Shown in pieces: positions 1,623 to 17,552 of a stretch of DNA of 64,000 nt. The DNA comes from a virus (Duplodnaviria > Caudoviricetes). The translations under genes were made by a program, and so were the position numbers. The DNA lies in IMG/VR virus record IMGVR_UViG_3300034095_001474, positions 32,001 through 96,000 of that record. One strand, given 5' to 3'. Under the pieces are notes generated by a model that did no database searches, had not been told where the DNA came from, and saw only the letters and a list, made by a program, of their open reading frames with translations. How positions within the stretch are numbered: the stretch's first letter is position 1; the number at the start of each line of letters is the position of its first letter.

Positions 1623-1679
1623 TTGTTTTTGTTTTTATTTGTTTATGTAAAGATAAGTATAATATTTCAATCTACCAAA

Positions 1680-2460: not shown

Positions 2461-2521
2461 AATTTCTAAGTATTAATTGGTTATAACAAAGATAAGTATA
2501 ATGTTTTGATTGTGCAAGTTT

Positions 2522-2743
2522 TTACCAATATTTTTTTAATCCATTTGCAATATCAGTTACAGAAAATAAAATCAATATAATTAATATTCCTACGAATGAA
2601 AATGGTGGTATCAATAACACTCGATTCAACCATTTAGGAATATTATCCACTGAGTCTATTATTGTTTTATATATCGCTATATTCATCATTATTAGTGTTA
2701 TACTAATTAATATCACGCAAAAAATTATTAAAAAAGTTTCCAT
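2522..2743 (-). CDS. small membrane protein
   Basis: two hydrophobic segments, own promoter. Confidence 0.7.
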   Translation of the reverse strand: METFLIIFCVILISITLIMMNIAIYKTIIDSVDNIPKWLNRVLLIPPFSFVGILIILILFSVTDIANGLKKYW

Positions 2744-2833
2744 AATTTATAGTTTTAATTGGTTTATATTTCCTTTGTGTAAAGATAAGTATAATATCCC
2801 AATAAACCTAACATTTATTGGGATATTTTTAAT

Positions 2834-3082
2834 TTATATTGGACTAACTTCATCTAATAAAATACATAAATTTTCTTTATGCGAAAGTAAATTTTGATAA
2901 TTTTCTTGGTAGTTCATTAACGTATCGTAATCAACATTTGCATTCTCTGAAACATAAGTAACAAAGTCGTGAAATAAATCACAAGTATCTATATCTCCAT
3001 TGTCAATAGCATTCATAATAATTAAGTCATCTTCTACTGACAATAAATCTTTTTTAAGTAAAGTTAAAATTTCTTTTTCCAT
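2834..3082 (-). CDS. hypothetical protein
   Basis: ORF, own promoter. Confidence 0.75.
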   Translation of the reverse strand: MEKEILTLLKKDLLSVEDDLIIMNAIDNGDIDTCDLFHDFVTYVSENANVDYDTLMNYQENYQNLLSHKENLCILLDEVSPI

Positions 3083-3139
3083 AATTTCTAGTTTTTTTGT
3101 TGGTTTATAATTTCTTTGTGTAAAGATAAGTATAATGTT

Positions 3140-3361
3140 TTAAATATGCAAATTTTTTATTGGTAATTTGCATTCTTTTATAATATCTTTAATATCATCG
3201 ATATTAAAATCAGTAATAAGTAAATTACCTATTGACCATAAATTTCCCTTATCAGTCAATCCAAAACTCAATCCTTTAAAATCAATTCTCCAATATGGTG
3301 CGTCCTCATACCCATTATAGGTTTTCTCATTCCAACACTCTCTTTTTATTTGATAACTCAT
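3140..3361 (-). CDS. hypothetical protein
   Basis: ORF, own promoter. Confidence 0.7.
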   Translation of the reverse strand: MSYQIKRECWNEKTYNGYEDAPYWRIDFKGLSFGLTDKGNLWSIGNLLITDFNIDDIKDIIKECKLPIKNLHI

Positions 3362-3423
3362 AATTTCTATTATTTATTTGTTTCTCCAAAGATAAGTATA
3401 ATATTTCAATCTACCAAATATTT

Positions 3424-3867
3424 TTATATTTTTATTACAATACTATTTTTATTATTATGTCCCGATACAAATTTTCTAGGTCTACCACTTTTATCGTATT
3501 TATTAAATTCAGTAAAACAACCACAAGCACATTTAATTATATCATTTTTTTCACCATAGTTTCTTCTATGGTCTTGCCCTCTATCAACCGTTCTGTTTAA
3601 ACTCATTAATTCGTGTTTACTATTTAATATAAGTAAATTATCTAAATCACAATTTAATGTGTCTTTATCTTTAAAAGTAACGATTTCGTTTGGTAATAGT
3701 TTTCTACCTAATTTAATTTCAGCATTTACTCTATGTAAATAACCATATGTATTCATAACACATAAATGATGACCTTTACCAACAATAGTTAATTGATAAA
3801 CTTTTTTTCCAGCTTTATGTATTGGATTACCACCTTTCCACATAAAATTATCATTTCCAAATTTCAT
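3424..3867 (-). CDS. HNH homing-endonuclease-like protein, apparently degenerate active site
   Basis: LHR..AE.KLGRKLLPNEIV-TF-KDKDTLN.DLDNL motif (usual HH replaced by TF); C-terminal CACGC...GRPRKFVSGHN; ATG at 3867, the upstream TTG lies in the promoter repeat. Confidence 0.7.
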   Translation of the reverse strand: MKFGNDNFMWKGGNPIHKAGKKVYQLTIVGKGHHLCVMNTYGYLHRVNAEIKLGRKLLPNEIVTFKDKDTLNCDLDNLLILNSKHELMSLNRTVDRGQDHRRNYGEKNDIIKCACGCFTEFNKYDKSGRPRKFVSGHNNKNSIVIKI

Positions 3868-3920
3868 AGTTTTTTTTATTTGTTTCTCCAAAGATAAGTA
3901 TAATATTTCAATCTACCAAA

Positions 3921-4406
3921 TTATACTGCAAATATTTTTACATTATTATATTTGTATATTGGTGTACCTTGTGTTTCTAATATATCAATCTTGTTCTTAA
4001 ATCGTTTGTTCATAGTATCTGCAATAGTATATATACCACTTTTCTTTCCAGCTCCAACTATTCTAACTTTTTGTCCATATACCAATTTACCACCATTAAT
4101 TTTTAGTAAATCTCTTGATACTGCAATCCATTTATGCTCACTCGCTTTTTGTGGGTCTATCTTATACATACAAGCCGTAACAAAAGGGTCTGCATCACAT
4201 TGTCCCTCTACTGCATTGTACATAGTCGCCACAACTCTATATACTTCTTTTTTAACGAGTTTTATTCTATTAGCAATAGTCTTTATTGTTTTAGGTTGTT
4301 CAGCTTCATTAGACACGCTAAAATCGTGTGTTAATAAAAACTTGAAAAAACACATAGTTAAAAACACTACCATAAAATTTTTGAATTCTTTAATTTCCAT
4401 AATCAT
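3921..4406 (-). CDS. 3D-domain (MltA-like) protein with N-terminal hydrophobic anchor
   Basis: ATMYNA..QCD.DP..TA, IAVSRDLL, DTMN.RF..KIDIL motifs. Confidence 0.75.
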   Translation of the reverse strand: MIMEIKEFKNFMVVFLTMCFFKFLLTHDFSVSNEAEQPKTIKTIANRIKLVKKEVYRVVATMYNAVEGQCDADPFVTACMYKIDPQKASEHKWIAVSRDLLKINGGKLVYGQKVRIVGAGKKSGIYTIADTMNKRFKNKIDILETQGTPIYKYNNVKIFAV

Positions 4407-4533
4407 TTCGTTTTAATGTTCTACAAAGTTAATAACAATTTTCCAATATTCCTAATTTATTTTGTTGAAAAATAAAATAAAAATAAATGCTATTTTATTT
4501 GGTAGATTGAAATAAGTTTCTTATCTTTGTTAT

Positions 4534-4604
4534 GTCAATGAGAAATCAAGACGGGTTCACTTCAACAAAGTGCATAGGGTAGACTCCAACACATCTATAC
4601 TTTT
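4534..4604 (+). ncRNA. unannotated small RNA family, copy 1
   Basis: plus-strand TTTG(4498)-N20-TATCTTTG(4522) promoter; ACGGGT, hairpin, AGACTCCAAC, T-run. Confidence 0.7.
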
Positions 4605-4618
4605 AAAAACCGCTGCAA

Positions 4619-4648
4619 ATAAAAAAAGAGGGACACAACTCCCTCTTT
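4619..4648 (-). terminator. intrinsic terminator
   Basis: AAAGAGGGA-CACAAC-TCCCTCTTT stem with A-run (U-tract on minus strand). Confidence 0.7.
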
Positions 4649-4708
4649 CCAATCAAACAAACAAACAAACGAACAATTTGTATTTTAAATGTTTTATAAT
4701 ATTTTATT

Positions 4709-4921
4709 TTAAACTTCTTGTTCTCTTATCTTATCCAAAGTTTCGTGGGATAATCCCACAAACAATGTTATTGATTCTTCTCCGTCTTCCCATAACTCTA
4801 GCATATCAAAACGGATATCAGTTTCTTCGTCATCGGGGTTTGCTACGTTTCCTAATAAAGTAATCTCTGCATCTTGGTTTTTGATTGCTTCTAACTGCTT
4901 GATTAAATCTTTTACTTTCAT
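4709..4921 (-). CDS. hypothetical protein (MKVKDLIKQL family)
   Basis: ORF; start trimmed to first ATG after promoter. Confidence 0.7.
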   Translation of the reverse strand: MKVKDLIKQLEAIKNQDAEITLLGNVANPDDEETDIRFDMLELWEDGEESITLFVGLSHETLDKIREQEV

Positions 4922-4966
4922 ATCTTTTAGTATTTGTTTTAACAAAGGTAAGTAATTTATTTCAAT

Positions 4967-5170
4967 CTACCAAATTTTTTCACTAGTATTTTTATATTTT
5001 TTTACAACGTTTTGATACTTGTCCATCAAGTCGTCATATAATCCATCGTTGATATCTTTCAACTTGTTCAAATATTTTCCAACATTTGCTTCGTGAGGTG
5101 TTTTGGTTTTTAATTTTATCGCTCTAATTCCACACTCAATGAATTTAACGTATGTTTGTTCTATAGTCAT
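4967..5170 (-). CDS. hypothetical protein
   Basis: ORF. Confidence 0.7.
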   Translation of the reverse strand: MTIEQTYVKFIECGIRAIKLKTKTPHEANVGKYLNKLKDINDGLYDDLMDKYQNVVKKYKNTSEKIW

Positions 5171-5185
5171 CTTTTCGAATTTAGG

Positions 5186-5473
5186 TTATTGAGCACATAG
5201 GCTCCACGCTTCTAGTTTGTTGATATTTCTTCCATTCAAATTTAATTCTTTGCAAATAAACTTCGCTAACTTTCTGTTGCCAATAGTTCCTTGGTCAATT
5301 ACGTTTGTACCAATTTGTTCTACAATATGGTACGTGTCCATTCCCAACACTCTACTGCAAAACTTTACATCTTGTCCTAGATAAAACTCTTTAGTAGTTT
5401 TTGGTGTTGATACTACTAGTGTCCAATTATGGTCAAATCCGTAGTTGCTGCTAATTTTAATTTCTGCTTGCAT
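5186..5473 (-). CDS. hypothetical protein
   Basis: ORF; start trimmed to ATG after promoter. Confidence 0.7.
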   Translation of the reverse strand: MQAEIKISSNYGFDHNWTLVVSTPKTTKEFYLGQDVKFCSRVLGMDTYHIVEQIGTNVIDQGTIGNRKLAKFICKELNLNGRNINKLEAWSLCAQ

Positions 5474-5556
5474 ATCGTTCTGTTTTAGTTTGTTTAACAA
5501 AGGTAAGTAAAATAATCCAATCTACCAAATATAAACTGGATTATTTTTATTTTTTT

Positions 5557-5823
5557 TTAAATTAATCCATTAACATTGTCAAAGATTGTATTACCTTTGT
5601 CGTTGATAACTTCAATAGTTGCATTGTGGTCATTTTCTTCAATACTCATTTGTTGATTAACATCAGTAAGAATACCCTCGTGAAAACAATCATCTCCAAA
5701 CATTTCAATCAAGTCATCAGCATTGGTGATTTCTTCGTTTTGAATCGCTTTGATTACTTCTTGTTCCAATTCTTGTGGTATAGTAATTCGTTCCCACGCT
5801 GTAATTTTAAAATCTATTTGCAT
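5557..5823 (-). CDS. hypothetical protein
   Basis: ORF, own promoter. Confidence 0.75.
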   Translation of the reverse strand: MQIDFKITAWERITIPQELEQEVIKAIQNEEITNADDLIEMFGDDCFHEGILTDVNQQMSIEENDHNATIEVINDKGNTIFDNVNGLI

Positions 5824-5906
5824 AATTTCTAGTATTTATTTGTTTATGTAAAGATAAGTAAAATAATTCAATCTACCAAATATAAATTGAATTATTTTTA
5901 ATTTAT

Positions 5907-6155
5907 TTATAGGTGTGTCATTTCGCCACAACCCAAACATTCCATATAAGGTTTACCACCTTGTGAAACTGCTACTTGTTCATCTGCCAGCAACATCCAA
6001 TGATTACCACCACACTCACCACATTTTGCGTCTTGACTTCCCATACGTTCTGTCATTGTCAATTGGTTCGCACCTTTAAAGTGTGGGTACACGTGGTCTA
6101 ACACATTTCCTTTCACCTCAACTAATACTGCTTGAAAAAATTTTGGTTTGCTCAT
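5907..6155 (-). CDS. hypothetical zinc-ribbon protein
   Basis: CGECGG...CLGCG. Confidence 0.7.
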   Translation of the reverse strand: MSKPKFFQAVLVEVKGNVLDHVYPHFKGANQLTMTERMGSQDAKCGECGGNHWMLLADEQVAVSQGGKPYMECLGCGEMTHL

Positions 6156-6199
6156 AAGTTCTATGTTTTATTTGTTATAACAAAGATAAGTAAAATATT

Positions 6200-6439
6200 T
6201 CAATTATAAAAATATTTTGTGGTATTTTTTGTTAAAATTTTACACAATTCTTCATAGTCATTATTTCGCTCTTCTTCCGTAGCATAAGAGTAACTTGTAT
6301 CTTCCACATCAATAAGATAAGGAAAATCTAAATTAAAATCCTCTTCTTTTGATATAGCCATTTTAGTTATATCATTCTCAATTGATTCTTGATTCCATTT
6401 GATTTTATCAAGGTCAAAGTTTAAATCTCCGTTTGTCAT
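6200..6439 (-). CDS. hypothetical protein
   Basis: ORF, own promoter. Confidence 0.7.
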   Translation of the reverse strand: MTNGDLNFDLDKIKWNQESIENDITKMAISKEEDFNLDFPYLIDVEDTSYSYATEEERNNDYEELCKILTKNTTKYFYN

Positions 6440-6518
6440 AAGTTCTATGTTTTATTTGTTATATCAAAGATAGTAAATAATAATGACACTACCAAATGAT
6501 AGTGTCATTATTTTTAAA

Positions 6519-7361
6519 TTATTTTTCTACTTTCTCTAATTCTTTTTGTATTACAACAACCATTTCATAATTCTCATCAGCCATTGCTTTTTCTTTGAAT
6601 CTCTCCAATACAAGTTTGTGCCAATCGCAATCCTCAAATGGTTCAACTTTATTGTCATACGCAATATCAATCATATTGATAACAAACTCATTTATTTCAT
6701 CATCGTACAAATCATTGAATACATCATCAAAATCATACTCATCAGCACCACCATAATGAATTTCCATTGCCAACTCCAATGCTTCTCGACTACCACCTTC
6801 GGGTATATTTTCTTCAATTTCTTCACCATTTATCAAAGTGAATGTACCTACATTGTGTCCAAAGTCTTCATCAGCAAATTGTATTTCAAATTTTGCTTCG
6901 GGATATTTTTCAGATAGTTTTGTGAATAGATTGAATGGTGTACTCCACGCAGTATTAAAACTTACATACTCACTATCATCACTCCAATACACTTCACTTG
7001 CATTCCATTTTGTACCCCAATTTTCATTCTGCCACCCATACCAATCGCTATGTCCAAATCTTTGTCTATATTCATCAGCCAACTCTTGCGTTAACCCTCT
7101 TGTTACCCCAAACTTTTTTTCACCCTCTGTCAATTCATCTTTAGCAATTCTTTCTTCTTGCTTGTCAAATTCTTCTTGACTAATAATTCTTGTAGGACTT
7201 GTTGTTCCTTGTAACTCTGTTGGTATAGGTGCAATTTGATTAAAATCAAAATCTCTATCTTCACCATTGCTATATGGTGTACCTTTCACTTCTTCTCTAA
7301 TTTTTGCTAACAATGTTTCATCAGCGAAAATACTTACTTTGTTTGCTACCCAGTTTGGCAT
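6519..7361 (-). CDS. DUF1281/YubB ferredoxin-like domain protein
   Basis: MPNWV.N, WYGWQNENWGTKWN, F.TAWSTP, FADEDFG motifs. Confidence 0.7.
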   Translation of the reverse strand: MPNWVANKVSIFADETLLAKIREEVKGTPYSNGEDRDFDFNQIAPIPTELQGTTSPTRIISQEEFDKQEERIAKDELTEGEKKFGVTRGLTQELADEYRQRFGHSDWYGWQNENWGTKWNASEVYWSDDSEYVSFNTAWSTPFNLFTKLSEKYPEAKFEIQFADEDFGHNVGTFTLINGEEIEENIPEGGSREALELAMEIHYGGADEYDFDDVFNDLYDDEINEFVINMIDIAYDNKVEPFEDCDWHKLVLERFKEKAMADENYEMVVVIQKELEKVEK

Positions 7362-7435
7362 AATTTCTAAGTTTTAGTTTGTTTAACAAAGATAAGCATA
7401 ATCTTTTGATTATGCAAATCTTTTTGTAATTATTT

Positions 7436-7813
7436 TTAGTTTATTTTATATAAACCAAAATCAACACTCGCAATAGTAGTTATAAACTTATTATCAACTA
7501 TCTCACCATTCAACAACCAATTAGGTTGTACCCTTGGATTGTATTTAAATCTGTCGCAAATCTTGTCAAATTGTGTAAACGTATGGTTAATAATCGTTAT
7601 GTCTTCACATAGCACCCACGCACATATAACTTTCTCACCACCATTGAATATCTTTTTAGCAACTCCTTTGTGGTTTTTCAACTGACAACTTTTCATTATC
7701 AATTGTACATCACTTGGTCTATGATATTCAACGTGTCCGTTGGGATATACGATTTTCCATTTCATAAAGTTATTACCTCTTCCTAAATTGAACCTCACTT
7801 TTATCTTTCTCAT
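7436..7813 (-). CDS. hypothetical protein
   Basis: ORF; start at MRKIKV. Confidence 0.75.
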   Translation of the reverse strand: MRKIKVRFNLGRGNNFMKWKIVYPNGHVEYHRPSDVQLIMKSCQLKNHKGVAKKIFNGGEKVICAWVLCEDITIINHTFTQFDKICDRFKYNPRVQPNWLLNGEIVDNKFITTIASVDFGLYKIN

Positions 7814-7947
7814 AATATCTATGTTTGTTTGTCTATACAAAGATAAGCATAATATTCCGTTCTACCAAATAAAATAGCAAAATAAATAAAAAAAAAATAA
7901 TTGCAAATAAATTAGGAATATCGAAATAAGTTTCTTATCTTTGTTAT

Positions 7948-8019
7948 GTAGATGATTGATATCGATACGGGTTCACCGCAAGGTGCATAGGCTAGACTCC
8001 AACACGTCTATACTTTTTT
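7948..8019 (+). ncRNA. unannotated small RNA family, copy 2
   Basis: plus-strand promoter; ACGGGTT-CACC-GCAA-GGTG hairpin; AGACTCCAAC; T6. Confidence 0.7.
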
Positions 8020-8028
8020 ATATAAAAC

Positions 8029-8050
8029 AAAAAAAAGGGTTTCCCCTTTT
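8029..8050. terminator. bidirectional intrinsic terminator
   Basis: AAAAGGG-TTTC-CCCTTTT between convergent sRNA and ORF. Confidence 0.6.
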
Positions 8051-8054
8051 CTCC

Positions 8055-8381
8055 CTATCCTAATTTTCTATAAGATATTGGATATCCCGTATCACCCCAT
8101 TTTATGTTTCCATAGGCAAATTCGTTTATGTCTTGGTCTTCAAAGATACTCAAATAATATTGATATGCTATTTCAAGACTTTCTTTTTTTGTCGTCCTTG
8201 GTGGATAAAAACCAAATAGATTTTCTTTTGGTAAACCACAATAAACAATATAGATTTTGTTGCTTCTGCTACCATATTGGTGAGCATCTGCATATTGTTT
8301 AAACTTGTTGAACGATATTGGTTTCCTTTGTACTGCTAAACCAATCAATTCCATTTTCTGCATTAATTCTATTGTTGTCAT
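8055..8381 (-). CDS. hypothetical protein
   Basis: ORF; start at MTTIEL. Confidence 0.75.
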   Translation of the reverse strand: MTTIELMQKMELIGLAVQRKPISFNKFKQYADAHQYGSRSNKIYIVYCGLPKENLFGFYPPRTTKKESLEIAYQYYLSIFEDQDINEFAYGNIKWGDTGYPISYRKLG

Positions 8382-8454
8382 AAGTTCTGTTTGTTTTAAC
8401 AAAGATAATAAATATATTCCATACTACCAAATAATATGGAATATATTTTTAAAA

Positions 8455-8667
8455 TTAATTTACATCATAATCACCAACAATTTCCAATTGTTCATCAGTT
8501 AAAACATCATCTGCAATCATTTCAACATAATACTTTGTATAAGGTATTTCATTTTCAAATTCCTCAACTTGTTCTTTGAAACTTTCTTTGGTGTTAGCAA
8601 CTATACCTCTACCAATGTTCTCGTTGCTATTTTTATCAAAAGCAATAATTTGTACATATACATTCAT
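8455..8667 (-). CDS. hypothetical protein
   Basis: ORF, own promoter. Confidence 0.7.
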   Translation of the reverse strand: MNVYVQIIAFDKNSNENIGRGIVANTKESFKEQVEEFENEIPYTKYYVEMIADDVLTDEQLEIVGDYDVN

Positions 8668-8743
8668 AACTTCTATTGTTTAGTGTGAAACAAAGATAAG
8701 CATAATCTTTCGATTATGCAAATCTTTTTGTATTTATTTTTAA

Positions 8744-8992
8744 TTATTTTTCAATTACAAAGTAACCATACTTAAACGGTTGATTTCCATAATCAACTTC
8801 ACCCATATCAACAAATTCCTCTCCGTCCTCTGTTTCGTGTACGGATACAACTTGATATTCTTCCGTATCAAATTCTTTTACCCTATCAATTTCTTCGGGA
8901 TGCAAAAATAGGAAATCCCCATACTCTACACTATCTTCTTCTGCTACTACCAATCCACCACCATATTGTGCGAAAAATTCTGTCTTTGTCAT
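8744..8992 (-). CDS. hypothetical acidic protein
   Basis: ORF, own promoter. Confidence 0.7.
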   Translation of the reverse strand: MTKTEFFAQYGGGLVVAEEDSVEYGDFLFLHPEEIDRVKEFDTEEYQVVSVHETEDGEEFVDMGEVDYGNQPFKYGYFVIEK

Positions 8993-9069
8993 AATCTTTA
9001 TATTTAATTTGTTTGTGAAACAAAGATAAGCATAATCTTTTGATTATGCAAATCTTTTTACAATTATTT

Positions 9070-9318
9070 TCAATAATTTATTAAAACAATAATATTACAC
9101 AAATCATTCATATAGCGTTCTACATTTTGATAGTGTATTTCCGTTTCATTTATTGCTTCTATTTCAGCATATAAATCACTTGGTAAGTCGTCAGCATCTA
9201 AAAAGTGTTTACCCTCCTTAAACACGCTAATTTCACGTTCAAATGTTCCACGTGGGTTTATTTGACTATAAACGTAATCTTTGATTAGTTTTTTCTGTTT
9301 GCTTGTTAACTTTCTCAT
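9070..9318 (-). CDS. hypothetical protein
   Basis: ORF; start at MRKLTS. Confidence 0.7.
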   Translation of the reverse strand: MRKLTSKQKKLIKDYVYSQINPRGTFEREISVFKEGKHFLDADDLPSDLYAEIEAINETEIHYQNVERYMNDLCNIIVLINY

Positions 9319-9396
9319 AGTATTTGTTTTTAATTGTGTATACAAATATAAATAAAAAAATCCATACTACCAAATGTAATATGGATTATTTTTAAA

Positions 9397-9864
9397 TTAT
9401 TTTATAGATTGTGAACTACAATTATATAACAAGTTTTCTACAATCAAATCCCACGTTGCTGTTGGGTCTTGCTCTACCTCATTAGGATAATATTTCAATA
9501 CTTCGTTGATTTCTGCAATAGTTGGATTCAATTTTAAATCAATTGCAACTTGTACCACGTCCTCAATGCTTGGTAGTATAAAAAATTCACTACTTGATAT
9601 AGGTTCGTCAAACTCCATATTTTCAATACAACCCTCATACCATAAGTCTGGACAATCGCATAATTCCATTTTAGTATTACAACCAAAACATTCTATACTA
9701 TTATCATCATCTTTAAATGATATAAATTCAATATCACTAATTGATTTCATTTCGTGTAATAAAATTGTACCACAATTTCCACACGTTACAATGTTGATAT
9801 TAGATTTTCCTCTAATGTCGTCCATTAGGTCTAATTGTTTCTGTGCTAATTCTCTTGTTGTCAT
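9397..9864 (-). CDS. hypothetical zinc-finger protein
   Basis: CGNCG...CFGC...CDC. Confidence 0.75.
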   Translation of the reverse strand: MTTRELAQKQLDLMDDIRGKSNINIVTCGNCGTILLHEMKSISDIEFISFKDDDNSIECFGCNTKMELCDCPDLWYEGCIENMEFDEPISSSEFFILPSIEDVVQVAIDLKLNPTIAEINEVLKYYPNEVEQDPTATWDLIVENLLYNCSSQSIK

Positions 9865-9947
9865 AATGTTTGTTTTTGATTACATTACAAAGATAAACAA
9901 AATAATTCAATCTACCAAATGTAAATTGAATTATTTTTAAATTATTT

Positions 9948-10382
9948 TTAATTTCTTCTTCTCCTTTCAAAAAAACCTTGGTCGGGGTCACCTAAACTAC
10001 AAGTTTCTAAATCTTCATACGTACCTTTGAATGATACCGATACCAATTTCAAAGGATATTTAAGTTTTAGTATGTCTTCATCATAACAACCAATATCAAT
10101 TCCTTTACCTCTATTGCTATCAGTATGTTCATCAATTTCTTTCATAAGAGGAAATTCACCATTGTATTTTACATCTGCTTTGTTCCAAAATGCTAAAATT
10201 TCGTGCATATCGTATTTAGGTTCACCATTTTCGTTTGTACCTAAATAACCATAATCTTGGTAGTAATCTTTGATAAACCCACCACCAAATTCTTTTGGTA
10301 TTAAAAATTTAAAAGGTCTATCATAAGCAACATTTTCAGTGCTTGTTAATTTGTCTGCTTTGTTCCAACTAAAACTTCCCAT
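9948..10382 (-). CDS. hypothetical protein
   Basis: 144-aa ORF, own promoter. Confidence 0.8.
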   Translation of the reverse strand: MGSFSWNKADKLTSTENVAYDRPFKFLIPKEFGGGFIKDYYQDYGYLGTNENGEPKYDMHEILAFWNKADVKYNGEFPLMKEIDEHTDSNRGKGIDIGCYDEDILKLKYPLKLVSVSFKGTYEDLETCSLGDPDQGFFERRRRN

Positions 10383-10471
10383 AATCTTTATATTTAATTT
10401 GTTTGTTTAACAAAGATAAGCATAATCTTTTGATTATGCAAATCTTTTTTGATTTATTTTTAAATTATTTT

Positions 10472-10702
10472 TTACAAATGTCCACCGTCATTATTGGTGG
10501 GGTCTTGATACTCATAGATAGTATCATCATCAAACAAAGTAGCCTCGGATAATTCGTCCTCCAACAAATCATTTATTACATCATCGTTTGTTAAAAATGT
10601 TTGTAATTCCTCATCAACAAGGTTCTCATCAACTTCAACTTCAATAGTTGCTTGTTTTGAGTAATGTCTTTCGATTGTAACCGATACGATTTTTGTTCCC
10701 AT
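10472..10702 (-). CDS. hypothetical protein
   Basis: ORF, own promoter. Confidence 0.7.
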   Translation of the reverse strand: MGTKIVSVTIERHYSKQATIEVEVDENLVDEELQTFLTNDDVINDLLEDELSEATLFDDDTIYEYQDPTNNDGGHL

Positions 10703-10746
10703 AATTTCTAGTTTTTATTTGTTTATGTAAAGATAAGTATAATATT

Positions 10747-10956
10747 TCAATCCTCCAAATAAATTTTAACTTTATTTGTTTTTTTTAATGTAAATTTATA
10801 CTTGGATAATGTTAAACCTTGATACATCATTAATCTTTTTACTCGCACCATTGCTTCGTCCCTATCTTTGCAATTCTCAATTAGTGTACTATCAATAAAA
10901 CTCTTTCCTTGGTAGATAGTATTTTTGTCATATAGACATAATTCGTAATTTTTCAT
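10747..10956 (-). CDS. hypothetical protein
   Basis: ORF, own promoter. Confidence 0.7.
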   Translation of the reverse strand: MKNYELCLYDKNTIYQGKSFIDSTLIENCKDRDEAMVRVKRLMMYQGLTLSKYKFTLKKTNKVKIYLED

Positions 10957-11040
10957 AAGTTCTATTTATTTGTCTATAACAAAGATAAGTAAAATAAACC
11001 ATACTACCAAATATAATATGGTTTATTTTTAAATTATTTT

Positions 11041-11565
11041 TTAACCTTGAAAATATTTTTTCAATACCAACTGCCTATGCATCTGTTCGTCCATTCCAAC
11101 TTGTTCCAATATATACTGCATCGTTTCTCCATCAACATCAATAACTTTCAACTTTGCAATAATATCTTTTACAAATTCGTGTGTCTGTGGTGTTTTACAT
11201 AAATCTGTTGGTGGTTCTTCTTCTTCTTCTTTGGGTTCTTCAAACAAGTCATACCAATTATTATCAATACATTCAGTATCTTTTAAATCCAATGCAATAT
11301 CAACATCGTGAACACTTCTCTCTAATGTTTCAAATTCTCCATAATTAATAAATTCTTCTAATTTACCCTCATCTTGAAATGAATTTGCTAACTTCAATAT
11401 AAGTACCTCATTGTCATTGTTACTGCGAATAGCACATTCCATACGTTTTTCAACTTCTGTAATCTTATCATCCAAAGATTTCAATGCAACCCCAACTTCA
11501 TCATCTTTTTGATATAAGTCGTAACGATTCATTAATTCTACCAAATTGTTAAATTCCTTTCTCAT
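11041..11565 (-). CDS. hypothetical protein
   Basis: ORF; start at MRKEFN. Confidence 0.75.
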   Translation of the reverse strand: MRKEFNNLVELMNRYDLYQKDDEVGVALKSLDDKITEVEKRMECAIRSNNDNEVLILKLANSFQDEGKLEEFINYGEFETLERSVHDVDIALDLKDTECIDNNWYDLFEEPKEEEEEPPTDLCKTPQTHEFVKDIIAKLKVIDVDGETMQYILEQVGMDEQMHRQLVLKKYFQG

Positions 11566-11648
11566 AATGTTTGTTTTAAATTGTTTTAACAAAGATAAGT
11601 ATAATGTTTTAATCTACCAAATTTTTAACCAACTTTTTTCAATTATTT

Positions 11649-11879
11649 TTAATCGTTGATATGTTCCCAACCTTCCAATTGTTCCAATTCCATATTAATA
11701 GGTCTTAAACCAAATGGTTCTGCTTGTAAATAATAATCAAAAATGTAACCCAATGGTTCAATCTCACTCAATATTCTATCTAACTCATAATAACTATTAT
11801 CAGCATCCTCATCAAAGGTTTCTAATATTGCTTGTACTTCACTTGGTATCAACTCTGGCGTTTCAAATAAATCTTTCAT
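11649..11879 (-). CDS. hypothetical protein
   Basis: ORF; start at MKDLFE. Confidence 0.75.
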   Translation of the reverse strand: MKDLFETPELIPSEVQAILETFDEDADNSYYELDRILSEIEPLGYIFDYYLQAEPFGLRPINMELEQLEGWEHIND

Positions 11880-12011
11880 AATGTTTGTTTTAAATTGTTT
11901 TAACAAAGATAAGTATAATATTCCAATCCACCAAATTTTTAATGAAAATAAATAATAAATTATTTTACATAAAAATTAGGATATGTCATTTATTATTCTT
12001 ACCTTTGTTTT

Positions 12012-12087
12012 GTTGGTGGTAGTAACCGAAACGGGTCGAGGGAAATCTTTGAGAGAGTAGACTCCAACCTACCTTATATTTTTTTTT
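12012..12087 (+). ncRNA. unannotated small RNA family, copy 3
   Basis: plus-strand TACCTTTG promoter; ACGGGTC, GAAA-capped hairpin, GAGAGAGTAGACTCCAACCTAC, T9. Confidence 0.7.
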
Positions 12088-12150
12088 ACCATATAGCAAA
12101 AAATTTGCAAAGGTACGAAATTAAATCGACCCTTGCAAATAAAGTTATGA

Positions 12151-12180
12151 ACAAAGGGACTGTTGATAAGTCCCCTTGTA
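12151..12180 (-). terminator. putative terminator downstream of DUF932 gene
   Basis: GGGACT-N7-AGTCCC stem. Confidence 0.45.
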
Positions 12181-12186
12181 ACTTTG

Positions 12187-13074
12187 TTAGTAATTCAATG
12201 CAAATTCTAAACTTGCTTGGTTCATATTGTAACCCGTTCCTTGTAACAAAGTTTCAATTTTACCATTGTCACGTTTTGGTGCTGACAATTCGTGTGTAGT
12301 GTAATATGTAATCCCACTATGTAAACCCCACAAAGTATCACCTTTGCTATTCATTTCACGTTCAATTGCGTTATACAAAGCATCCATTTTGTTTATGCTA
12401 CGTGTAGACTTATCTGCTAAATCATTTACACTAGTATAAACCTTGTCAAACCCAATAATGTGTTTAACCATTTTGTGAGCCAAATCACGTGAAATTTTTG
12501 TACTTGCAAATTGATTGTAAATTTCAATCTGTCTTAAACTTTCTGACAATGCAGTTTCAATCAAAAATGGAATTTCTTTTATTCTACGTTCCAAACTTGC
12601 AGTATGTCTAAATTTAGATTGTCCACTTTTATAGAACTTGAAAAATTGATTAGAACAACTCATAGTCAAATCACCAATACCAACAGACAATCCCGTACTT
12701 CCGTCATTGCTATCAATGATTGTAATGTACTTTTTGATAGTGTCATTACCTACCTTGCCGTCACCATTGATAGCCAATTGTAAAAATACTCTACGACCAC
12801 CATTCAATGCACCACCTTTGGTAACTTGAACATCATTTCCAAATGGTTCAATACCTCTCAATACCAAATCAACAACTTCCTCATTTTGGGAAACTGTGTA
12901 CCCTTCTTTTACAGTATTAATCACTTCATTTGTGCTTGAATTAATCAAACCAAAATACTCACTTGGTACATAGATACCATTAGAATTTAAAGCCATTAAA
13001 GGTGCTTTCTCGATTGTAAAATCTAAACCATTAGATTTTAAAATTTCTTGTAACTTTGTGTTTTGCATACTCAT
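12187..13074 (-). CDS. DUF932 (phage/plasmid-like) domain protein
   Basis: Y.VSQNEE, GGALNGGRRVF, DSNDGSTG, CSNQF, RHT, TLWGL.SG.T motifs. Confidence 0.8.
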   Translation of the reverse strand: MSMQNTKLQEILKSNGLDFTIEKAPLMALNSNGIYVPSEYFGLINSSTNEVINTVKEGYTVSQNEEVVDLVLRGIEPFGNDVQVTKGGALNGGRRVFLQLAINGDGKVGNDTIKKYITIIDSNDGSTGLSVGIGDLTMSCSNQFFKFYKSGQSKFRHTASLERRIKEIPFLIETALSESLRQIEIYNQFASTKISRDLAHKMVKHIIGFDKVYTSVNDLADKSTRSINKMDALYNAIEREMNSKGDTLWGLHSGITYYTTHELSAPKRDNGKIETLLQGTGYNMNQASLEFALNY

Positions 13075-13242
13075 AATATATATGTTTTTTTGTTCCCTAC
13101 AAAGATACATATTCTTTTTTAATCTGCAATGAAAAAAATCATTTATTTTCATTCAAGTTATTAACAATTTTATTTTTACAATTGTTAATAACTTTGACCT
13201 AAAAAATTTGGTGCATTGAAATAAAATGCTTATCTTTGTAGT

Positions 13243-13313
13243 GTAGGTACGAGAGTGATACGGGTCGCTGACAAAGTGAGAGAGTAGACTCCAACCTACC
13301 TTATATTTTTTTT
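13243..13313 (+). ncRNA. unannotated small RNA family, copy 4
   Basis: plus-strand TTTG-N20-TATCTTTG promoter; same conserved core; T8. Confidence 0.7.
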
Positions 13314-13382
13314 ATATAAAAAAAAAAGAAAATAAAATTTCCTACCAAATTAATGGTAGGAAATAAAGTTATTAACAAGTTA

Positions 13383-13742
13383 TTAACATTCTGCTTCAAA
13401 ACTGCATTCACCATTTTCGATGATACAATCTCTAATTTGTTTACCCAATCCCAAATCGGCATACTCTCTCAATTCGTCTTGTGTAATATTAGCATCTGCT
13501 AACATTGTGTCATTGTAACCATTGTTAGTTTCAAAAAAATCATCGATGATTTTTACCTTGTCACCTAAACTTTCCTCAATACGTGCAATTTCTTGTTCCA
13601 CACCCTCAAGGTCTTCATCACCAAAGTAATAGTTCAATGTTTCGGGTTGAGTACCTTGCACCCCAAATCTATCAGCACAATCACTGCTTTGTAGTGCAAA
13701 CCAAAATTTTCCTTCAATATCACCACTAAAATAACGTCCCAT
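13383..13742 (-). CDS. hypothetical protein
   Basis: 119-aa ORF, own promoter. Confidence 0.8.
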   Translation of the reverse strand: MGRYFSGDIEGKFWFALQSSDCADRFGVQGTQPETLNYYFGDEDLEGVEQEIARIEESLGDKVKIIDDFFETNNGYNDTMLADANITQDELREYADLGLGKQIRDCIIENGECSFEAEC

Positions 13743-13851
13743 AATTTTTAAATTTTAAATTGTTTGTATTAATTAACTTTAACAAAGATAAGTATAATAT
13801 TCTAATCTACCAAATTTTTCTCCAGGTTTTTTTAATTTATTTTTTTAGTAA

Positions 13852-13891
13852 TGTTTCACGTGAAACATTTTGTATTGTTCCACGTGAAACA
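13852..13891. promoter_or_regulatory. two tandem parS sites
   Basis: TGTTTCACGTGAAACA (13852-13867) and TGTTCCACGTGAAACA (13876-13891) match the bacterial ParB parS consensus. Confidence 0.85.
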
Positions 13892-13898
13892 TTTTATA

Positions 13899-14615
13899 TT
13901 AGTGTAGTATAATTTCTATACTTTTATCTGTTTTGGTTCCTAAAGTACCACTACATAAACCACATTTAGAACAAGTTGCTTTGTACCCACTTTCTTTTGA
14001 AGCGGGACAACTAACAAAATCTAATTTTTTATCAGTAGCAACAAAACTACGATAACCTTGTAATTTCGCAATTTTTTCTTCTTCTATAGTGTGAGTACTT
14101 GACATAAAATATTCACCTAAATTTTCTTTGTTCCATTGGTGGGTGTAGCCAGTCCAATTGTCGCAAACATTCACCATTGATTTAATCATTTCTATGGGGT
14201 GTAAACTAGGTTCACCATACGAGCCAAAACGTACATAAGTATCTTTTGACATTTTGATTAAATCAATTAACATTGATTTATCAAAGTTAGGTATATTTTC
14301 TATACTACCAAACTTTTTTGCTATAGAACGTAATGATGATGTAAAACCACAATATTGATTAAATTTGTGAGTATAACACTTTCCAAACGAATTGAAAGGA
14401 CAATCCAAACAATTTGTATCAGCAACACTAAAAAAGTTCGCCATACCTATTGATAAACCACTTTCAAGGCTATCTAAAACCAATTGGTATTGTTTTTCAC
14501 TATAGGTGTACGTTTGTACAATTTTACGTTTTTTGTTCCCCTCAATTTTATCATTTGAAGTTGTTCCCAATGTAACCACGTGTAGGGCATTTCTGTGTCT
14601 AAATACTACTTTCAT
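13899..14615 (-). CDS. Cys-rich phage protein (Gp88-like)
   Basis: CLDCPF..CY, VRFGSYGEP, WTGYTHQW, CPAS..TCSKCGLC. Confidence 0.55.
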   Translation of the reverse strand: MKVVFRHRNALHVVTLGTTSNDKIEGNKKRKIVQTYTYSEKQYQLVLDSLESGLSIGMANFFSVADTNCLDCPFNSFGKCYTHKFNQYCGFTSSLRSIAKKFGSIENIPNFDKSMLIDLIKMSKDTYVRFGSYGEPSLHPIEMIKSMVNVCDNWTGYTHQWNKENLGEYFMSSTHTIEEEKIAKLQGYRSFVATDKKLDFVSCPASKESGYKATCSKCGLCSGTLGTKTDKSIEIILH

Positions 14616-14833
14616 AATTTGCTTGTTTTAAATTGTTTTGACAAAGATAAGTATAATGTTTTAATCTACCAAATTTTTTTGCAATTATTTTTAAATTATT
14701 TTTCATTGCTTAAATTCGATATGCAAATATAGTAATATTATTTTAATATACAACTATTATATAAGAAAAAAAATAAATAAAAATAATTGCAAAAAAATTA
14801 GGAATAACGAAATAAGTTTCTTATCTTTGTTAT

Positions 14834-14896
14834 GTAGATGCAAACAGCGATACGGGTCGGATAAAAAAAATCTGAGAGAGTAGACTCCAACCTACG
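14834..14896 (+). ncRNA. unannotated small RNA family, copy 5
   Basis: plus-strand promoter; ACGGGTC-GGA..TCTGA hairpin; GAGAGAGTAGACTCCAACCTAC; no T-run. Confidence 0.65.
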
Positions 14897-14906
14897 ATAA
14901 ATTCTC

Positions 14907-15066
14907 CTTATTTAGAATGAATATAAATAACGAAAAAATTTGGTATACTCGATTTAATTCACTACCTTTGTATTCTAATTAATTTTAATCTTATTTAGAA
15001 TGAATATAAATAACAAAAAAAGTGAAAATAAATTTGGTAGTTCGGAATTAATTCACTACCTTTGTA
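14907..15066 (+). repeat. tandem imperfect duplication carrying two plus-strand promoters
   Basis: 25-bp CTTATTTAGAATGAATATAAATAAC at 14907 and 14990, each followed by TTTGGTA..TTAATTCACTACCTTTGTA. Confidence 0.75.
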
Positions 15067-15219
15067 ATATGAATATTTTTAATCTTTAAATAGTATGCCT
15101 ATGTAATATGCCCTTTATGACATATCAAATTTTTACGCCCTTTCCTATGGAAGTGGGGGAAGTACTTATACCCGTACTTTTATAGTATGGGGCAAACTTG
15201 CGTTCATAAAATTATGGAA

Positions 15220-15235
15220 TGTTCCACGTGAAACA
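15220..15235. promoter_or_regulatory. parS site
   Basis: TGTTCCACGTGAAACA. Confidence 0.85.
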
Positions 15236-15512
15236 TTGTGTCCAAAAATTTGGGCTGAAAAATGCTCGTGTGTTTGCGTGAAGCATAAAGTATATGTATG
15301 TATTCTTATGGGATAAATCTATGGTATTTCTATATACCATATCTGTATAATTATGCCCTATCACGCCCTATTATTACTATTTACCATTTTATGGTACTAA
15401 TTATTTACACTTTATCCCACTTTTTACCACAAAACCCGTTTTTTAGCCCAAAAACGCAAAATAATAAAACTTTGCTAATATGGGTACAAAAAGGAAGTGG
15501 TTTGTAACTGCC

Positions 15513-15532
15513 ATGTACACAATTGTGTACAT
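15513..15532. repeat. 20-bp perfect palindrome (identical copy at 15978; variant at 34357)
   Basis: ATGTACACAATTGTGTACAT. Confidence 0.7.
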
Positions 15533-15652
15533 TTCGGAAAGGGTGTTTTATGCAATAATGTTCATTAGTTATCTGGTGTTCATCTGGTGGTATATTGTGG
15601 TAACACACTGCGTGTGTTTACTAGATTTGTTATATTCTATATTATAGTTTCT

Positions 15653-15904
15653 CTATTGTATGGTATTGTCATTGTCTTGTTTATTATCGAAGTATTTGTG
15701 TCCATTTTCTCTTAGGAGGATATGTCCAAGTGCTGCTGCGTATTCGTCTTTTGTTATAAAGTCGGATATGATTACATTGTTATCATTAATTCTTGTTTTG
15801 GTATATGTACCATTGTGTAGTTCTGCGTACATGGTAGGATATTTCATATTTCCAAACATTACTTTAAATTTTCTTTTTATATAGTTGTTTATGTTATGGC
15901 TCAT
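15653..15904 (-). CDS. hypothetical protein
   Basis: ORF coupled to upstream gene. Confidence 0.65.
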   Translation of the reverse strand: MSHNINNYIKRKFKVMFGNMKYPTMYAELHNGTYTKTRINDNNVIISDFITKDEYAAALGHILLRENGHKYFDNKQDNDNTIQ

Positions 15905-16275
15905 ATAAGATTATAATTTATTAGTATTTGTTTTTTTATAAATTCCTTTATGTATTGTATTGCATTGTTGTTGTTGTATGTACACAATTGTGTACATGTA
16001 TCGTTGTCTATTGTATATGTTTTAGCTTTATAATAGTTAATTTCTTCTTGTGTTAATTTACGTAAGATATTTTCTTGTTTATGTAAAGATAAGTATAGTT
16101 CATATTTATCTTTTACATCATAGAAATATTTTACTTCACAATCAATATTGTTCTTATATATTATTCTATTGTTATTATCATAGTGAATTTCTTCTATAAG
16201 GATATTATCTACATAATCTTTTGTTATGTGTATATTGTATGTATCTTCGTATAGGATTGTTTCTTGTTTAATCAT
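15901..16275 (-). CDS. hypothetical protein with YD-like repeat
   Basis: HYDNNNRIIY motif; resembles 23615-23965. Confidence 0.65.
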   Translation of the reverse strand: MIKQETILYEDTYNIHITKDYVDNILIEEIHYDNNNRIIYKNNIDCEVKYFYDVKDKYELYLSLHKQENILRKLTQEEINYYKAKTYTIDNDTCTQLCTYNNNNAIQYIKEFIKKQILINYNLI

Positions 16276-16324
16276 TATGTTTACGTTGAATGGGGTTTAT
16301 GTAGTTGTGTTTGTATAATGTGGG

Positions 16325-16561
16325 TTATCTGGGTGTTATTGTATATTCACCACACATTATTATTTCATCATTATTTTCATCATATGCTTTAATACAATTC
16401 TCGTTTATCTTTTTATATGATATTACACTATAAGAATTTCCGTTAGAGTTAATGATTGTATATTTACAATTTTCATATTGTTTTGTGTGTATGTATACAA
16501 CTGTAAAACACACTGCGAATATGCTTATGTATATAAGCATAAATGTTAAAAATCTTTTCAT
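16325..16561 (-). CDS. membrane-anchored hypothetical protein
   Basis: N-terminal TM. Confidence 0.65.
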   Translation of the reverse strand: MKRFLTFMLIYISIFAVCFTVVYIHTKQYENCKYTIINSNGNSYSVISYKKINENCIKAYDENNDEIIMCGEYTITPR

Positions 16562-16582
16562 CTTGTTTTATTTAAAGGTTAA

Positions 16583-16780
16583 TTATTCTTCTTCAATATC
16601 TTCAATGTTTACAATTATTGTTTTATCAATTGGATAGCAAGCCACGAGTGTTTTTTCATCAAAGAAAGAATAGAATCCACTGCTTGTGCTATTGTTTGTT
16701 GTTGTATGGAAATTTTTAGCATATATGCTAACTTCATGGACATATGTATATGTCAATACCATTAAATTATATTTTTTCAT
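16583..16780 (-). CDS. hypothetical protein
   Basis: ORF in operon. Confidence 0.65.
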   Translation of the reverse strand: MKKYNLMVLTYTYVHEVSIYAKNFHTTTNNSTSSGFYSFFDEKTLVACYPIDKTIIVNIEDIEEE

Positions 16781-16781
16781 A

Positions 16782-17543
16782 CTATTTCTTTTTATGGAAT
16801 TGATTAAACCATTGTTCTAGGTCTACTTTAACTAATGCTGATTGTAATGCTTCTGAAATTATAAACTTAACTTCTTCTTCACTATATAATTTGTTGTCTT
16901 GTCCTTGTTGCCATTCAGCACCTTTGATAAATGAATGTCTATCTGATGGAATACAATTTATATAATGTATTTCAGCTGCTGCTTGTAATTCCACTTGTTT
17001 CTCTATTTTAGGGTCACCATGTTTGTCTAACCAATTGGTAATCATTTTTCCTTCTTCTTCTTCTTCTTCTGGAATGTTTTTATTAGCCAAAGGCATTACA
17101 ACCATGCTCATATCACGTTTGAACCTTTCTTCTAGGTTATCTAATGGTTTAGGTTCTGACTCATCACACATTCTTTCTTTACATTCTGTATAACCACGTT
17201 TAAAAGCAATTCTTTCCATTAATTCCCATTTTTCATCTGGATAAAAATCTATCGCTAATTCTTCTAATGTTTCTTGTTTATGTTCTTCTTGTTTTTTATC
17301 AGCAATTTCCTTTTTAAGGTCCATTATAAGTTTACTACCATAGCTAATTAATATAAGGTCATTAGAAAAATAACTACTAACTCTTTCTTCTTCACCATAA
17401 GGTTTAAAATAGAGTTGACCATCTTCTTTTCTATATACTTTATGTATTCCACTGTCTTGAACGTCAACATAATAACCATTTTGTATAACTCTATCAATCT
17501 TATCACGACATATAACTTGTTTAGGTTCTTCTTCTGGTTTCAT
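16782..17543 (-). CDS. hypothetical mosaic protein
   Basis: 253-aa ORF with phage motifs AF..G..WQ and LYSEEEV. Confidence 0.75.
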   Translation of the reverse strand: MKPEEEPKQVICRDKIDRVIQNGYYVDVQDSGIHKVYRKEDGQLYFKPYGEEERVSSYFSNDLILISYGSKLIMDLKKEIADKKQEEHKQETLEELAIDFYPDEKWELMERIAFKRGYTECKERMCDESEPKPLDNLEERFKRDMSMVVMPLANKNIPEEEEEEGKMITNWLDKHGDPKIEKQVELQAAAEIHYINCIPSDRHSFIKGAEWQQGQDNKLYSEEEVKFIISEALQSALVKVDLEQWFNQFHKKK

Positions 17544-17552
17544 AATATTTAA

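Follow-up and report, generated by a model that had tools for sequence, protein, structure and literature searches.

To our knowledge, structured phage RNAs with a known role are few, namely tRNAs, pRNA, antisense RNAs of the C4/CI type, RNA anti-CRISPRs (Racrs) and pseudo-ToxI. Pseudo-ToxI and the type III antitoxins are small pseudoknotted RNAs which neutralise proteins stoichiometrically and are present as multiple repeats per locus. The put RNAs of phage HK022 are hairpin RNAs of about 70 nucleotides (nt) that lie at or after a phage early promoter and act in cis on the polymerase, causing read-through of terminators into the genes beyond. Species 1 and 2 of phage T4 are small stable RNAs of unknown function, which are made from host-type promoters in the tRNA cluster and processed together with the tRNAs. 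The PeSL modules of T4-like phages, said to have been described by Arbiol et al. in 2010, reportedly combine a promoter with hairpin repeats between small early genes at junctions of variable content. Here we describe a family of small RNAs (sRNAs) with five copies in a 64,000-nt stretch of the Caudoviricetes record IMGVR_UViG_3300034095_001474 (positions 32,001 to 96,000; referred to as the window), and precedents for a phage RNA decoy are given by the Racrs (PMC10651486) and by rAcrIIA1, a mimic of the single-guide RNA (bioRxiv 10.64898/2026.06.03.729762).

Racrs, which are solitary repeat units, and rAcrIIA1 are, like the members of the family described here, small phage non-coding RNAs with their own promoter, and a decoy role is proposed here as well. 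However, Racrs are homologous to host CRISPR repeats or to the trans-activating CRISPR RNA (tracrRNA), whereas the present family has no host counterpart that we could find, reaches up to 12 copies per genome and has a three-hairpin fold with a phage-specific invariant core. ToxI consists of tandem 34-40-nt repeats that are cut by the toxin from one transcript, with the toxin gene adjoining. In contrast, the copies of the present family are dispersed over kilobases (1.2-4 kb apart in the window), each with its own promoter and terminator, and neither a toxin gene nor a host homologue was found (301 genomes searched by core motif, 151 by covariance model), on which grounds a type III antitoxin was rejected. 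The anti-CRISPR or ToxI-type mimicry proposed in the initial annotation has likewise found no support, as no lookalike sequence was detected in the host genomes searched and the copies are not in tandem. The put RNAs differ in that the sRNA is followed by a terminator-like hairpin and by no downstream gene on its strand, and shares no similarity with any Rfam model. Unlike the T4 species 1 and 2 RNAs, the sRNA copies have tRNAs nearby in just 5 of about 130 loci, which rules out a tRNA linkage. PeSL modules reportedly act as punctuation at the DNA level, follow the orientation of the genes and yield no conserved RNA product, whereas the sRNA has a 15-nt core and covarying helices and lies mostly opposite to the genes. 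Finally, viral tRNA-like structures and tRNA-elbow mimics (PMC4810234) may share with the family, as judged from sequence, a T-loop pentad U-C-C-R-A and a G-rich linker in a compact viral RNA, but acceptor stem, CCA end and anticodon arm are missing here and the loop has 8 nt instead of 7.

The pattern ACGGGT-N10-30-AGACTCC was found five times in the window against none expected from 100 shuffles, and there are exactly five occurrences of AGACTCCAAC. From these five copies we built a covariance model with only the hairpins P1 and P2 as structure (model R1); over the 64 kb it scored them at 74-82 bits, followed by a next best site of 11 bits, and revealed no sixth copy. The five plus-strand copies reported in the initial annotation were confirmed in this way at their positions (Table 1), as were the central hairpins quoted there, which agree with the alignment of the copies. 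Each copy is preceded by a promoter of the form TT(T/A)G-N20-TAYCTTTG-N4, the 4 nt after the -7 box abutting the first G of the RNA. The assignment of a Bacteroidota promoter to all five copies was therefore correct, and this promoter class is the one of about 30 minus-strand gene promoters in bases 1-20000. None of the five copies lies inside a credible open reading frame (ORF), and all credible genes of bases 1-20000 are on the minus strand, in agreement with the earlier description of the copies as non-coding and opposite to the protein genes. The T-run noted after four of the five copies is present, with an AU-rich hairpin in its place at copy 5. A back-to-back minus-strand promoter was located for copies 1, 2, 3 and 5 (at 4431, 7845, 11911 and 14649, respectively), whereas none was found for copy 4.

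Relatives of the sRNA turned out to be numerous. A strict pattern scan returned 16 IMG/VR loci, 7 GTDB contigs and at least 120 metagenome contigs, and R1 matched at least 206 sites (E <= 0.001) with at least 176 distinct sequences, in at least about 130 loci from IMG/VR, from JGI, ENA and TARA metagenomes and from binned contigs. An earlier, loose pattern scan of IMG/VR yielded mostly chance matches, about 14 of its 115 loci being confirmed by R1. True copies are present in just two of the seven GTDB "genome" contigs, which are short, were binned into metagenome-assembled genomes (Bacteroidales and Saccharibacteria, respectively) and look like phage DNA. The only true phage match obtained with short blastn queries is the cultured Tenacibaculum phage Larrie (ON950054, Cbastvirus, 77.5 kb), which has three copies at 16916, 18767 and 19396, on the strand opposite to the genes and unannotated in the record. 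Matches to Klebsiella and Serratia jumbo phages were discarded as chance, since they lie inside coding regions. Clusters of 12, 8, 6, 3 and 2 copies per record were observed; the 12-copy cluster spans 26 kb of one 206-kb contig, and a complete 353-kb phage has two copies. A megablast of 12 kb of the window against 50,697 phage records gave no match, and the parts of the window phage compared with 71 kb of Larrie have only two proteins in common, for which reason a shared partner gene was rejected. Judged by these sequence comparisons, the family is spread among unrelated phages.

The predicted RNA consists of three consecutive hairpins in the order P1, GGG linker, P2, one purine and P3. P1 starts at nucleotide 1, where GUA, GUC or GUU pairs with UAC, GAC or AAC just 5' of GGG, giving the closing pairs G1-C, U2-A and N3-N'; its inner stem has the form U-G/A-N with N'-C/U-G/A, and its loop is often a GNRA tetraloop and otherwise larger. 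P2 is variable and closed by U-A or C-G. The 5' strand and the 8-nt loop of P3 are invariant (AGRGUAGACUCCRAC), and its 3' strand is variable. P3 occurs in two registers, namely type i with GUAG/CUAC (112 sequences) and type ii with UAGAC/GUCUA (56 sequences), both of which leave an 8-nt loop containing CUCCRAC. The GTAG/CTAC-type stem described earlier for the 3' part thus applies to copies 3-5 (GUAG/CUAC), whereas copies 1 and 2 use the register UAGA(C)/(G)UCUA. Invariant or near-invariant nucleotides are G1, U2, the AC before the linker, the linker GGG itself, A-G-R-G-U-A-G-A-C-U-C-C-R-A-C and a terminal YAUAY. In the P1 of copy 4, a likeness to the sarcin-ricin loop (GUACGAGAGUGA) was considered and dismissed, since other members have ordinary covarying pairs or other loops at this place.

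This fold is strongly supported by comparative evidence. In an alignment of 115 sequences, 86.5% of the cells show standard pairing, compared with 36-50% when the partners are slid by 1-3 columns. Cells changed on both sides number 294 against 88 +/- 9 in shuffles, and none of 500 shuffles reached 294; the alignment was fitted to the model, which somewhat favours P1 and P2, but the raw counts are still unambiguous. At the P1 pair 3/58 we found CG 40, AU 26 and UA 25 times, and a direct count of position 3 against the base before ACGGG gave pairing in 145 of 146 sequences (C-G 55, A-U 49, U-A 38, G-U 3). Double changes occur at all five P2 pairs, and U64 after GGG pairs with an A two bases 5' of the core, with C-G instead in 16 sequences, which implies that P2 begins directly after GGG. 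Since the 5' strand of P3 is invariant, only one-sided changes are possible there, and those observed keep the pairing (U opposite A 71 and G 36 times; G opposite C 94 and U 15 times). P1 and P2 are thus established by covariation, and P3 is backed by one-sided compatible changes only. In the loop, UCC is invariant; of the 115 sequences, 113 have a purine at position 124 and 103 have an A at position 125. The frequent U-G and G-U pairs in P1 and P3, which would be C-A mismatches on the other strand, identify the plus strand as the functional one.

These data also change the picture of the 5' part of the RNA. What had been taken for a free variable segment of 16-19 nt is the covarying hairpin P1, and the two ends of the RNA, which had been proposed to pair with each other, do so no better than by chance (mean longest helix 3.4 nt, against 3.4 +/- 0.05 with shuffled partners). 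Moreover, no more than GGG and a single purine stay unpaired between the helices, which leaves no free guide segment, so that the idea of a guide RNA with a variable guide and a constant scaffold had to be given up.

Each sRNA seems to be an independent transcription unit. A TAnnTT(T/A)(G/A) box lies 2-6 nt 5' of the RNA start in 130 of 165 copies and a full promoter in 101 of 165, and six copies have a second promoter type, TGTGATTTTTAAGA..GTTGTTATATT, with the RNA starting at the same G. We also observed that TGTGATTTTTAAGA-N8-GTTGTTATAT(T/A) recurs before the sRNA and before neighbouring genes in loci L135 (7020-7190), L186, L232, L238 and L139. A run of five or more T follows within 3 nt in 62 of 173 copies and an A-run, often with a second AU hairpin, in 19, while the rest have neither, so that a classical terminator is not found at every 3' end. 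Of 184 copies, 135 are opposite to the coding strand around them, 27 have the same orientation and 22 are in mixed surroundings. A divergent gene promoter was detected in 56 of 165 copies, mostly with the -7 box 75-82 nt from the RNA start, and a convergent promoter downstream in 21 of 167 copies, one of them in the window (Table 1). A cis-regulatory leader, riboswitch or attenuator does not fit these orientations or the all-minus genes of bases 1-20000; where the orientation is the same, the RNA lies, in the locus examined (L135), between a terminator and the promoter of the next gene, and this fresh promoter together with the terminator separates it from that gene. Contigs of one marine metatranscriptome align at 85-95% identity to stretches of the DUF932 gene and to copy 3 in its 3' part, but they come from relatives and cannot show strand, ends or RNA origin of the material. 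A sequencing-run look-up of a 10-kb stretch listed no RNA dataset as containing it, and a depth peak at 13306-13350 coincides with low-complexity A/T sequence. Altogether, we consider it very probable that each copy is a stand-alone gene for a non-coding RNA of 55-80 nt (roughly 67 nt) and that these genes form a real structured RNA family. The multicopy sRNA family with one promoter per copy that the initial annotation had proposed has thus been substantiated by the relatives found with R1, by covariation and by the promoters.

Table 1. Copies of the sRNA, their promoters and adjoining features in the window
Feature	Position	Strand	Description
sRNA copy 1	4534-4600	+	R1 74.2 bits; P1 GUC..GAC, GGG, P2 CACUU/AAGUG
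sRNA copy 1, 3' half			invariant AGGGUAGACUCCAAC, then UCUA as 3' strand, then T4
Promoter of copy 1	4498-4529	+	-33 TTTG, spacer 20 nt, -7 TATCTTTG
sRNA copy 2	7948-8013	+	R1 74.4 bits; followed by T6
P1 of copy 2	7948-7968		
GGG of copy 2	7969-7971		
P2 of copy 2	7972-7987		
Core of copy 2	7989-8003		
P3 3' strand of copy 2	8006-8013		
Promoter of copy 2	7912-7943	+	-33 TTAG, -7 TATCTTTG
sRNA copy 3	12012-12079	+	R1 81.9 bits; P1 GUU..AAC, P2 CGAGG/UCUUUG
sRNA copy 3, 3' half			core AGAGUAGACUCCAAC, CUACCUU, then T8
Promoter of copy 3	11976-12007	+	-33 TTAG, -7 TACCTTTG
Convergent promoter	12095-12122	-	TTTG-N20-TACCTTTG; between DUF932 stop and copy 3
DUF932 gene	12187-13152	-	Pfam PF06067, E = 9.6e-22; copies 3 and 4 on either side; given as context, outside the RNA
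sRNA copy 4	13243-13306	+	R1 74.9 bits; P1 GUA..UAC, GAGA tetraloop; P2 CGCU/AGUG
sRNA copy 4, 3' half			core AGAGUAGACUCCAAC, CUACCUU, then T8
Promoter of copy 4	13207-13238	+	-33 TTTG, -7 TATCTTTG
sRNA copy 5	14834-14902	+	R1 77.7 bits; P1 GUA..UAC, P2 CGGAU/AUCUG
sRNA copy 5, 3' half			core AGAGUAGACUCCAAC, CUAC; no T-run; 3' end uncertain
Promoter of copy 5	14798-14829	+	-33 TTAG, -7 TATCTTTG

The search for known families led to no assignment. Rfam 15 gave no match at any of the five copies, neither at the gathering threshold nor at E <= 10, and the same held at E <= 0.1 for about 20 homologous copies from five further loci; a known cis-regulatory or terminator family, the outcome that would have spoken against a new RNA, was therefore not encountered. 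ARAGORN predicted no gene in the window, and a tRNA or tRNA-like gene was excluded on the basis of this result, of the missing Rfam tRNA match at the copies and of the 5'-3' pairing at shuffled level. The core 12-mer, searched on both strands, had 56 matches in 301 Bacteroidota genomes, with at most two per genome and not above a reversed-pattern control, which means that there are no such repeat arrays in these 301 genomes. R1 detected no homologue in 151 genomes; its best host match (E = 3.7e-5 per genome) has none of the motifs and lies inside an ORF of 426 amino acids (aa). In the searchable literature the motif was not found, apart from a 14-nt identity of the core with a synthetic reference hairpin (GAGUA pentaloop, in papers containing the 11-mer), which was treated as coincidence. 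Integron attC-like ends (GTTRRRY / RYYYAAC) fit some copies only and were likewise discarded. From the sequences searched, the family is an apparent orphan class of RNA, absent from Rfam and without a counterpart found in the host genomes.

The best single reading of these data, to which we assign a probability of roughly 40%, is a trans-acting decoy that titrates a conserved factor. Judging from the promoter geometry, transcription driven by a host sigma factor would begin 4 nt beyond the TAnnTTTG box, with the conserved G as first nucleotide, and the RNA would be made early and abundantly by the host polymerase from several strong promoters; the early timing we infer from the promoter type only. 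The GGG linker could then pair with CC/CUCC of the P3 loop as a tertiary contact. The loop sequence U-C-C-R-A corresponds to a T-loop signature, and the contact would mimic the D-loop/T-loop elbow of tRNA, in which the third T-loop base pairs with G19 and G18 stacks between positions 4 and 5 (PMC4810234). Such a contact would yield a compact, L-shaped or pseudoknotted particle, whose invariant face might bind and titrate a conserved host factor, so that the RNA would act in trans as a stoichiometric decoy or sponge. The target would most plausibly be an RNA-binding immune protein or a protein of RNA or tRNA metabolism, and less likely a small ligand. The variable stems would not be guides but the result of drift under structural constraint, and this drift would keep the direct repeats too short for recombination to delete the intervening genes. 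What makes the decoy the preferred reading is the neighbourhood of ORFan, DUF932, DUF1281_C and SprT-like genes together with the copy number and the precedents of Racrs and rAcrIIA1.

Several points weigh against the decoy. The GGG linker and the CC of the loop, which would form the contact, are both invariant and so yield no covariation. In one subclass, ACGUGC replaces ACGGGU while the loop is unchanged, and this speaks against a simple pseudoknot there. With 8 nt in the P3 loop and UCCRA placed differently in the two registers, the hairpin is not a canonical T-arm; the T-arm-like loop is also invisible to ARAGORN and to the Rfam tRNA model. As no lookalike was found in the host genomes searched, the RNA is not a sequence mimic of a host RNA. 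Moreover, the prevalence of copies opposite to genes and the fixed distance from a divergent promoter in a third of all copies would fit a role of transcription itself. We regard it as rather doubtful, though worth considering, that the family constitutes a new counter-defence or host-takeover class of RNA which neutralises a conserved Bacteroidota protein by shape and not by copying a sequence. Such an RNA would fold into a compact, pseudoknotted particle that may include a contact similar to the tRNA elbow, and up to a dozen strong early promoters would drive its expression. Protein sponges such as Ocr, Tad and Acb would then have an RNA counterpart, spread horizontally among unrelated marine and freshwater phages.

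The alternative that fares best is a base-pairing sRNA, in which the exposed invariant loop (ACUCCRAC or GUAGACUCC) would serve as seed on host or phage mRNAs or on another RNA and alter translation or stability. As in many trans-acting sRNAs, the invariant loop is single-stranded, the three-hairpin RNA is stable and its 3' end resembles a terminator. In addition, the convergent promoter at DUF932-linked copies would give a perfectly complementary antisense transcript, and the antisense sequence would also be carried by read-through mRNAs of upstream genes. In the window, the block at 12095-12122 forms a full promoter on the gene strand which is aimed into copy 3, so that an antisense transcript is to be expected, and a TTTGCAAAGGTACGAAAT block is likewise found 3' of sRNA copies adjoining DUF932 genes in other loci. 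However, the core 12-mer and its complement are at chance level in the 301 genomes, which leaves no conserved host target of that length there, and the only near-complements in the window are two 10-mers with one mismatch, both within coding regions. A 15-nt invariant seed across unrelated phages and hosts would furthermore require an equally invariant target. Seeds as short as 6-8 nt are possible, and overall we judge base pairing to be unlikely as the main function.

Less probable still is that transcription as such matters and not its product, the sRNA being a strongly transcribed short antisense cassette which insulates one-gene cassettes. It could act on read-through transcripts, by collision or by processing, or else divergent transcription could boost the back-to-back promoter through supercoiling. 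The orientations and the divergent promoters described above agree with this idea, as does the placement of copies in the gaps from a terminator to the following promoter, within an array of about 30 promoters that each serve a single gene. Nevertheless, it leaves the 15-nt invariant core, the compensatory changes in two helices and the purine-only position unexplained, copies oriented like the genes and under another type of promoter exist as well, and the fixed divergent geometry applies to a third of the copies only.

About equally improbable is a ligand-binding or catalytic RNA, such as an aptamer that might soak up a signalling molecule (for example an immune second messenger) or a small ribozyme with an active site formed by the conserved junction nucleotides. 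Both riboswitch aptamers and small ribozymes typically have such an architecture, in which covarying helices surround invariant nucleotides of junctions and loops (about 20 here) and a pseudoknot may be present, and many copies with strong promoters as well as NAD-salvage genes in the phage (NAMPT and PRPP synthase) would be in accordance with it. On the other hand, no riboswitch or ribozyme model of Rfam matched even at E <= 10, and neither an expression platform nor a downstream gene nor evidence of cleavage was seen, so that this proposal is by pure analogy. A ribozyme of the hepatitis delta virus or hammerhead type was rejected, given the misfit in helix order and the missing Rfam match.

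We consider it very improbable that the constant part is loaded into a Cas effector as a mimic of a CRISPR repeat or tracrRNA of Bacteroidota or that the variable part guides a nuclease. The repeat lies 3' of the spacer in Cas13b CRISPR RNAs, which counts in favour of such an RNA, together with the precedents of Racr and rAcrIIA1. The core ends in CCAAC like the 36-nt CRISPR2 repeats of Riemerella (PMC5006608), and cores of subtype B (AGGGUA..CAAC) somewhat resemble the VI-B repeats of Flavobacterium (PMC5395568); however, local alignment of the published Flavobacterium VI-B, II-C and V-A repeats (PMC5395568), which may not be those of the host, was no better than that of shuffled repeats, the Rfam CRISPR-DR models gave no match, no Cas, TnpB or IscB effector was found among about 20 window proteins and 10 neighbour families, and the hairpins in place of spacers and the lack of arrays or R1 homologues in host genomes are as described above. 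A resemblance to the Cas12a handle was also discarded, since TGTAGAT of copies 2 and 5 is the promoter end plus GUAGAU and is absent in copies 1, 3 and 4.

With regard to its setting, the window is AT-rich phage sequence with a GC content of about 30%, and sequencing-run look-ups found it in lake-water metagenomes from 17 studies. Its proteins include a T5 A1-like "DNA transfer protein" (phrog_1745), NAMPT, PRPP synthase and helicases. Bases 1-15000 form an array of small ORFans with about 30 near-identical minus-strand promoters, TTTGG-N20-TAYCTTTG (ATTTGGTAGATTGAAATA..CTTATCTTTGTTAAAACAAA), roughly one per gene; a subclass of these promoters has an inverted repeat inside the spacer (GCATAATC..GATTATGC). 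Genes near sRNA copies encode DUF932, DUF1281_C/Api92-like and SprT-like proteins, families which are usual in plasmid leading regions and anti-defence islands. In 18 loci, a DUF932 homologue and an sRNA copy are about 100 nt apart and mostly arranged tail-to-tail, and a conserved block AAAAAATTTGCAAAGGTACGAAAT lies between the DUF932 stop and the sRNA 3' end in L047, L059, L133, L199, L229 and L116. DUF932 and an ORFan of 100 aa track sub-lineages, and neither is universal. Next to copy 1 we observed an ORFan of 161 aa (3921-4406, minus strand) without Pfam match, which is one of the two window proteins with a homologue in Larrie and has 48% identity over 104 aa to the Larrie protein UXQ88831, encoded beside thymidylate synthase.

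Some further elements were noticed in the window. The AU-rich hairpin CTTATTTAGAATGAATATAAATAAC after copy 5 is duplicated (14908-14932 and 14990-15014), with a plus-strand consensus promoter after each hairpin (-7 boxes at 14963 and 15057), and it also follows sRNA copies without T-run in L012, L047, L159 and L226; it may be an alternative terminator or a processing signal. An ORF-poor block at 14990-15650, 3' of copy 5, recurs at the same place with 65-70% identity in L159 (2904-3479) and L047/L062. Its plus strand folds with z = -2.6, and it contains a perfect parS-type palindrome TGTTCCACGTGAAACA (15220-15235), TTTACCAC repeats and a TGTACA..TGTACA inverted repeat. This block looks like a site at the DNA level, such as an origin, a partition site or an injection-stop region, and not like an RNA. 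On the minus strand at 26272-26370, a 99-nt match to the Rfam tRNA model (30.1 bits, barely over the gathering threshold) without ARAGORN call may represent a tRNA-shaped RNA with an oversized anticodon arm.

With dozens of compensatory changes in two helices and about 20 nucleotides that stay invariant over roughly 130 loci, the family has one of the clearest comparative signatures of an orphan RNA, and it is missing both from Rfam and from the annotation of its sole cultured carrier. Bacteroidota are a major bacterial group in aquatic carbon turnover, and among their phages in lakes and oceans the family is abundant. Since Larrie and its Tenacibaculum host provide a cultured pair with three copies, expression, partner and phenotype are directly testable. 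If the sRNA acts via transcription or pairing, it would explain the organisation of cassette arrays with one promoter per gene. Should it instead prove to occupy a protein of immunity or RNA metabolism as a decoy, counter-defence by RNA would reach past CRISPR mimicry, and the family would offer a handle on the defence systems of Bacteroidota.

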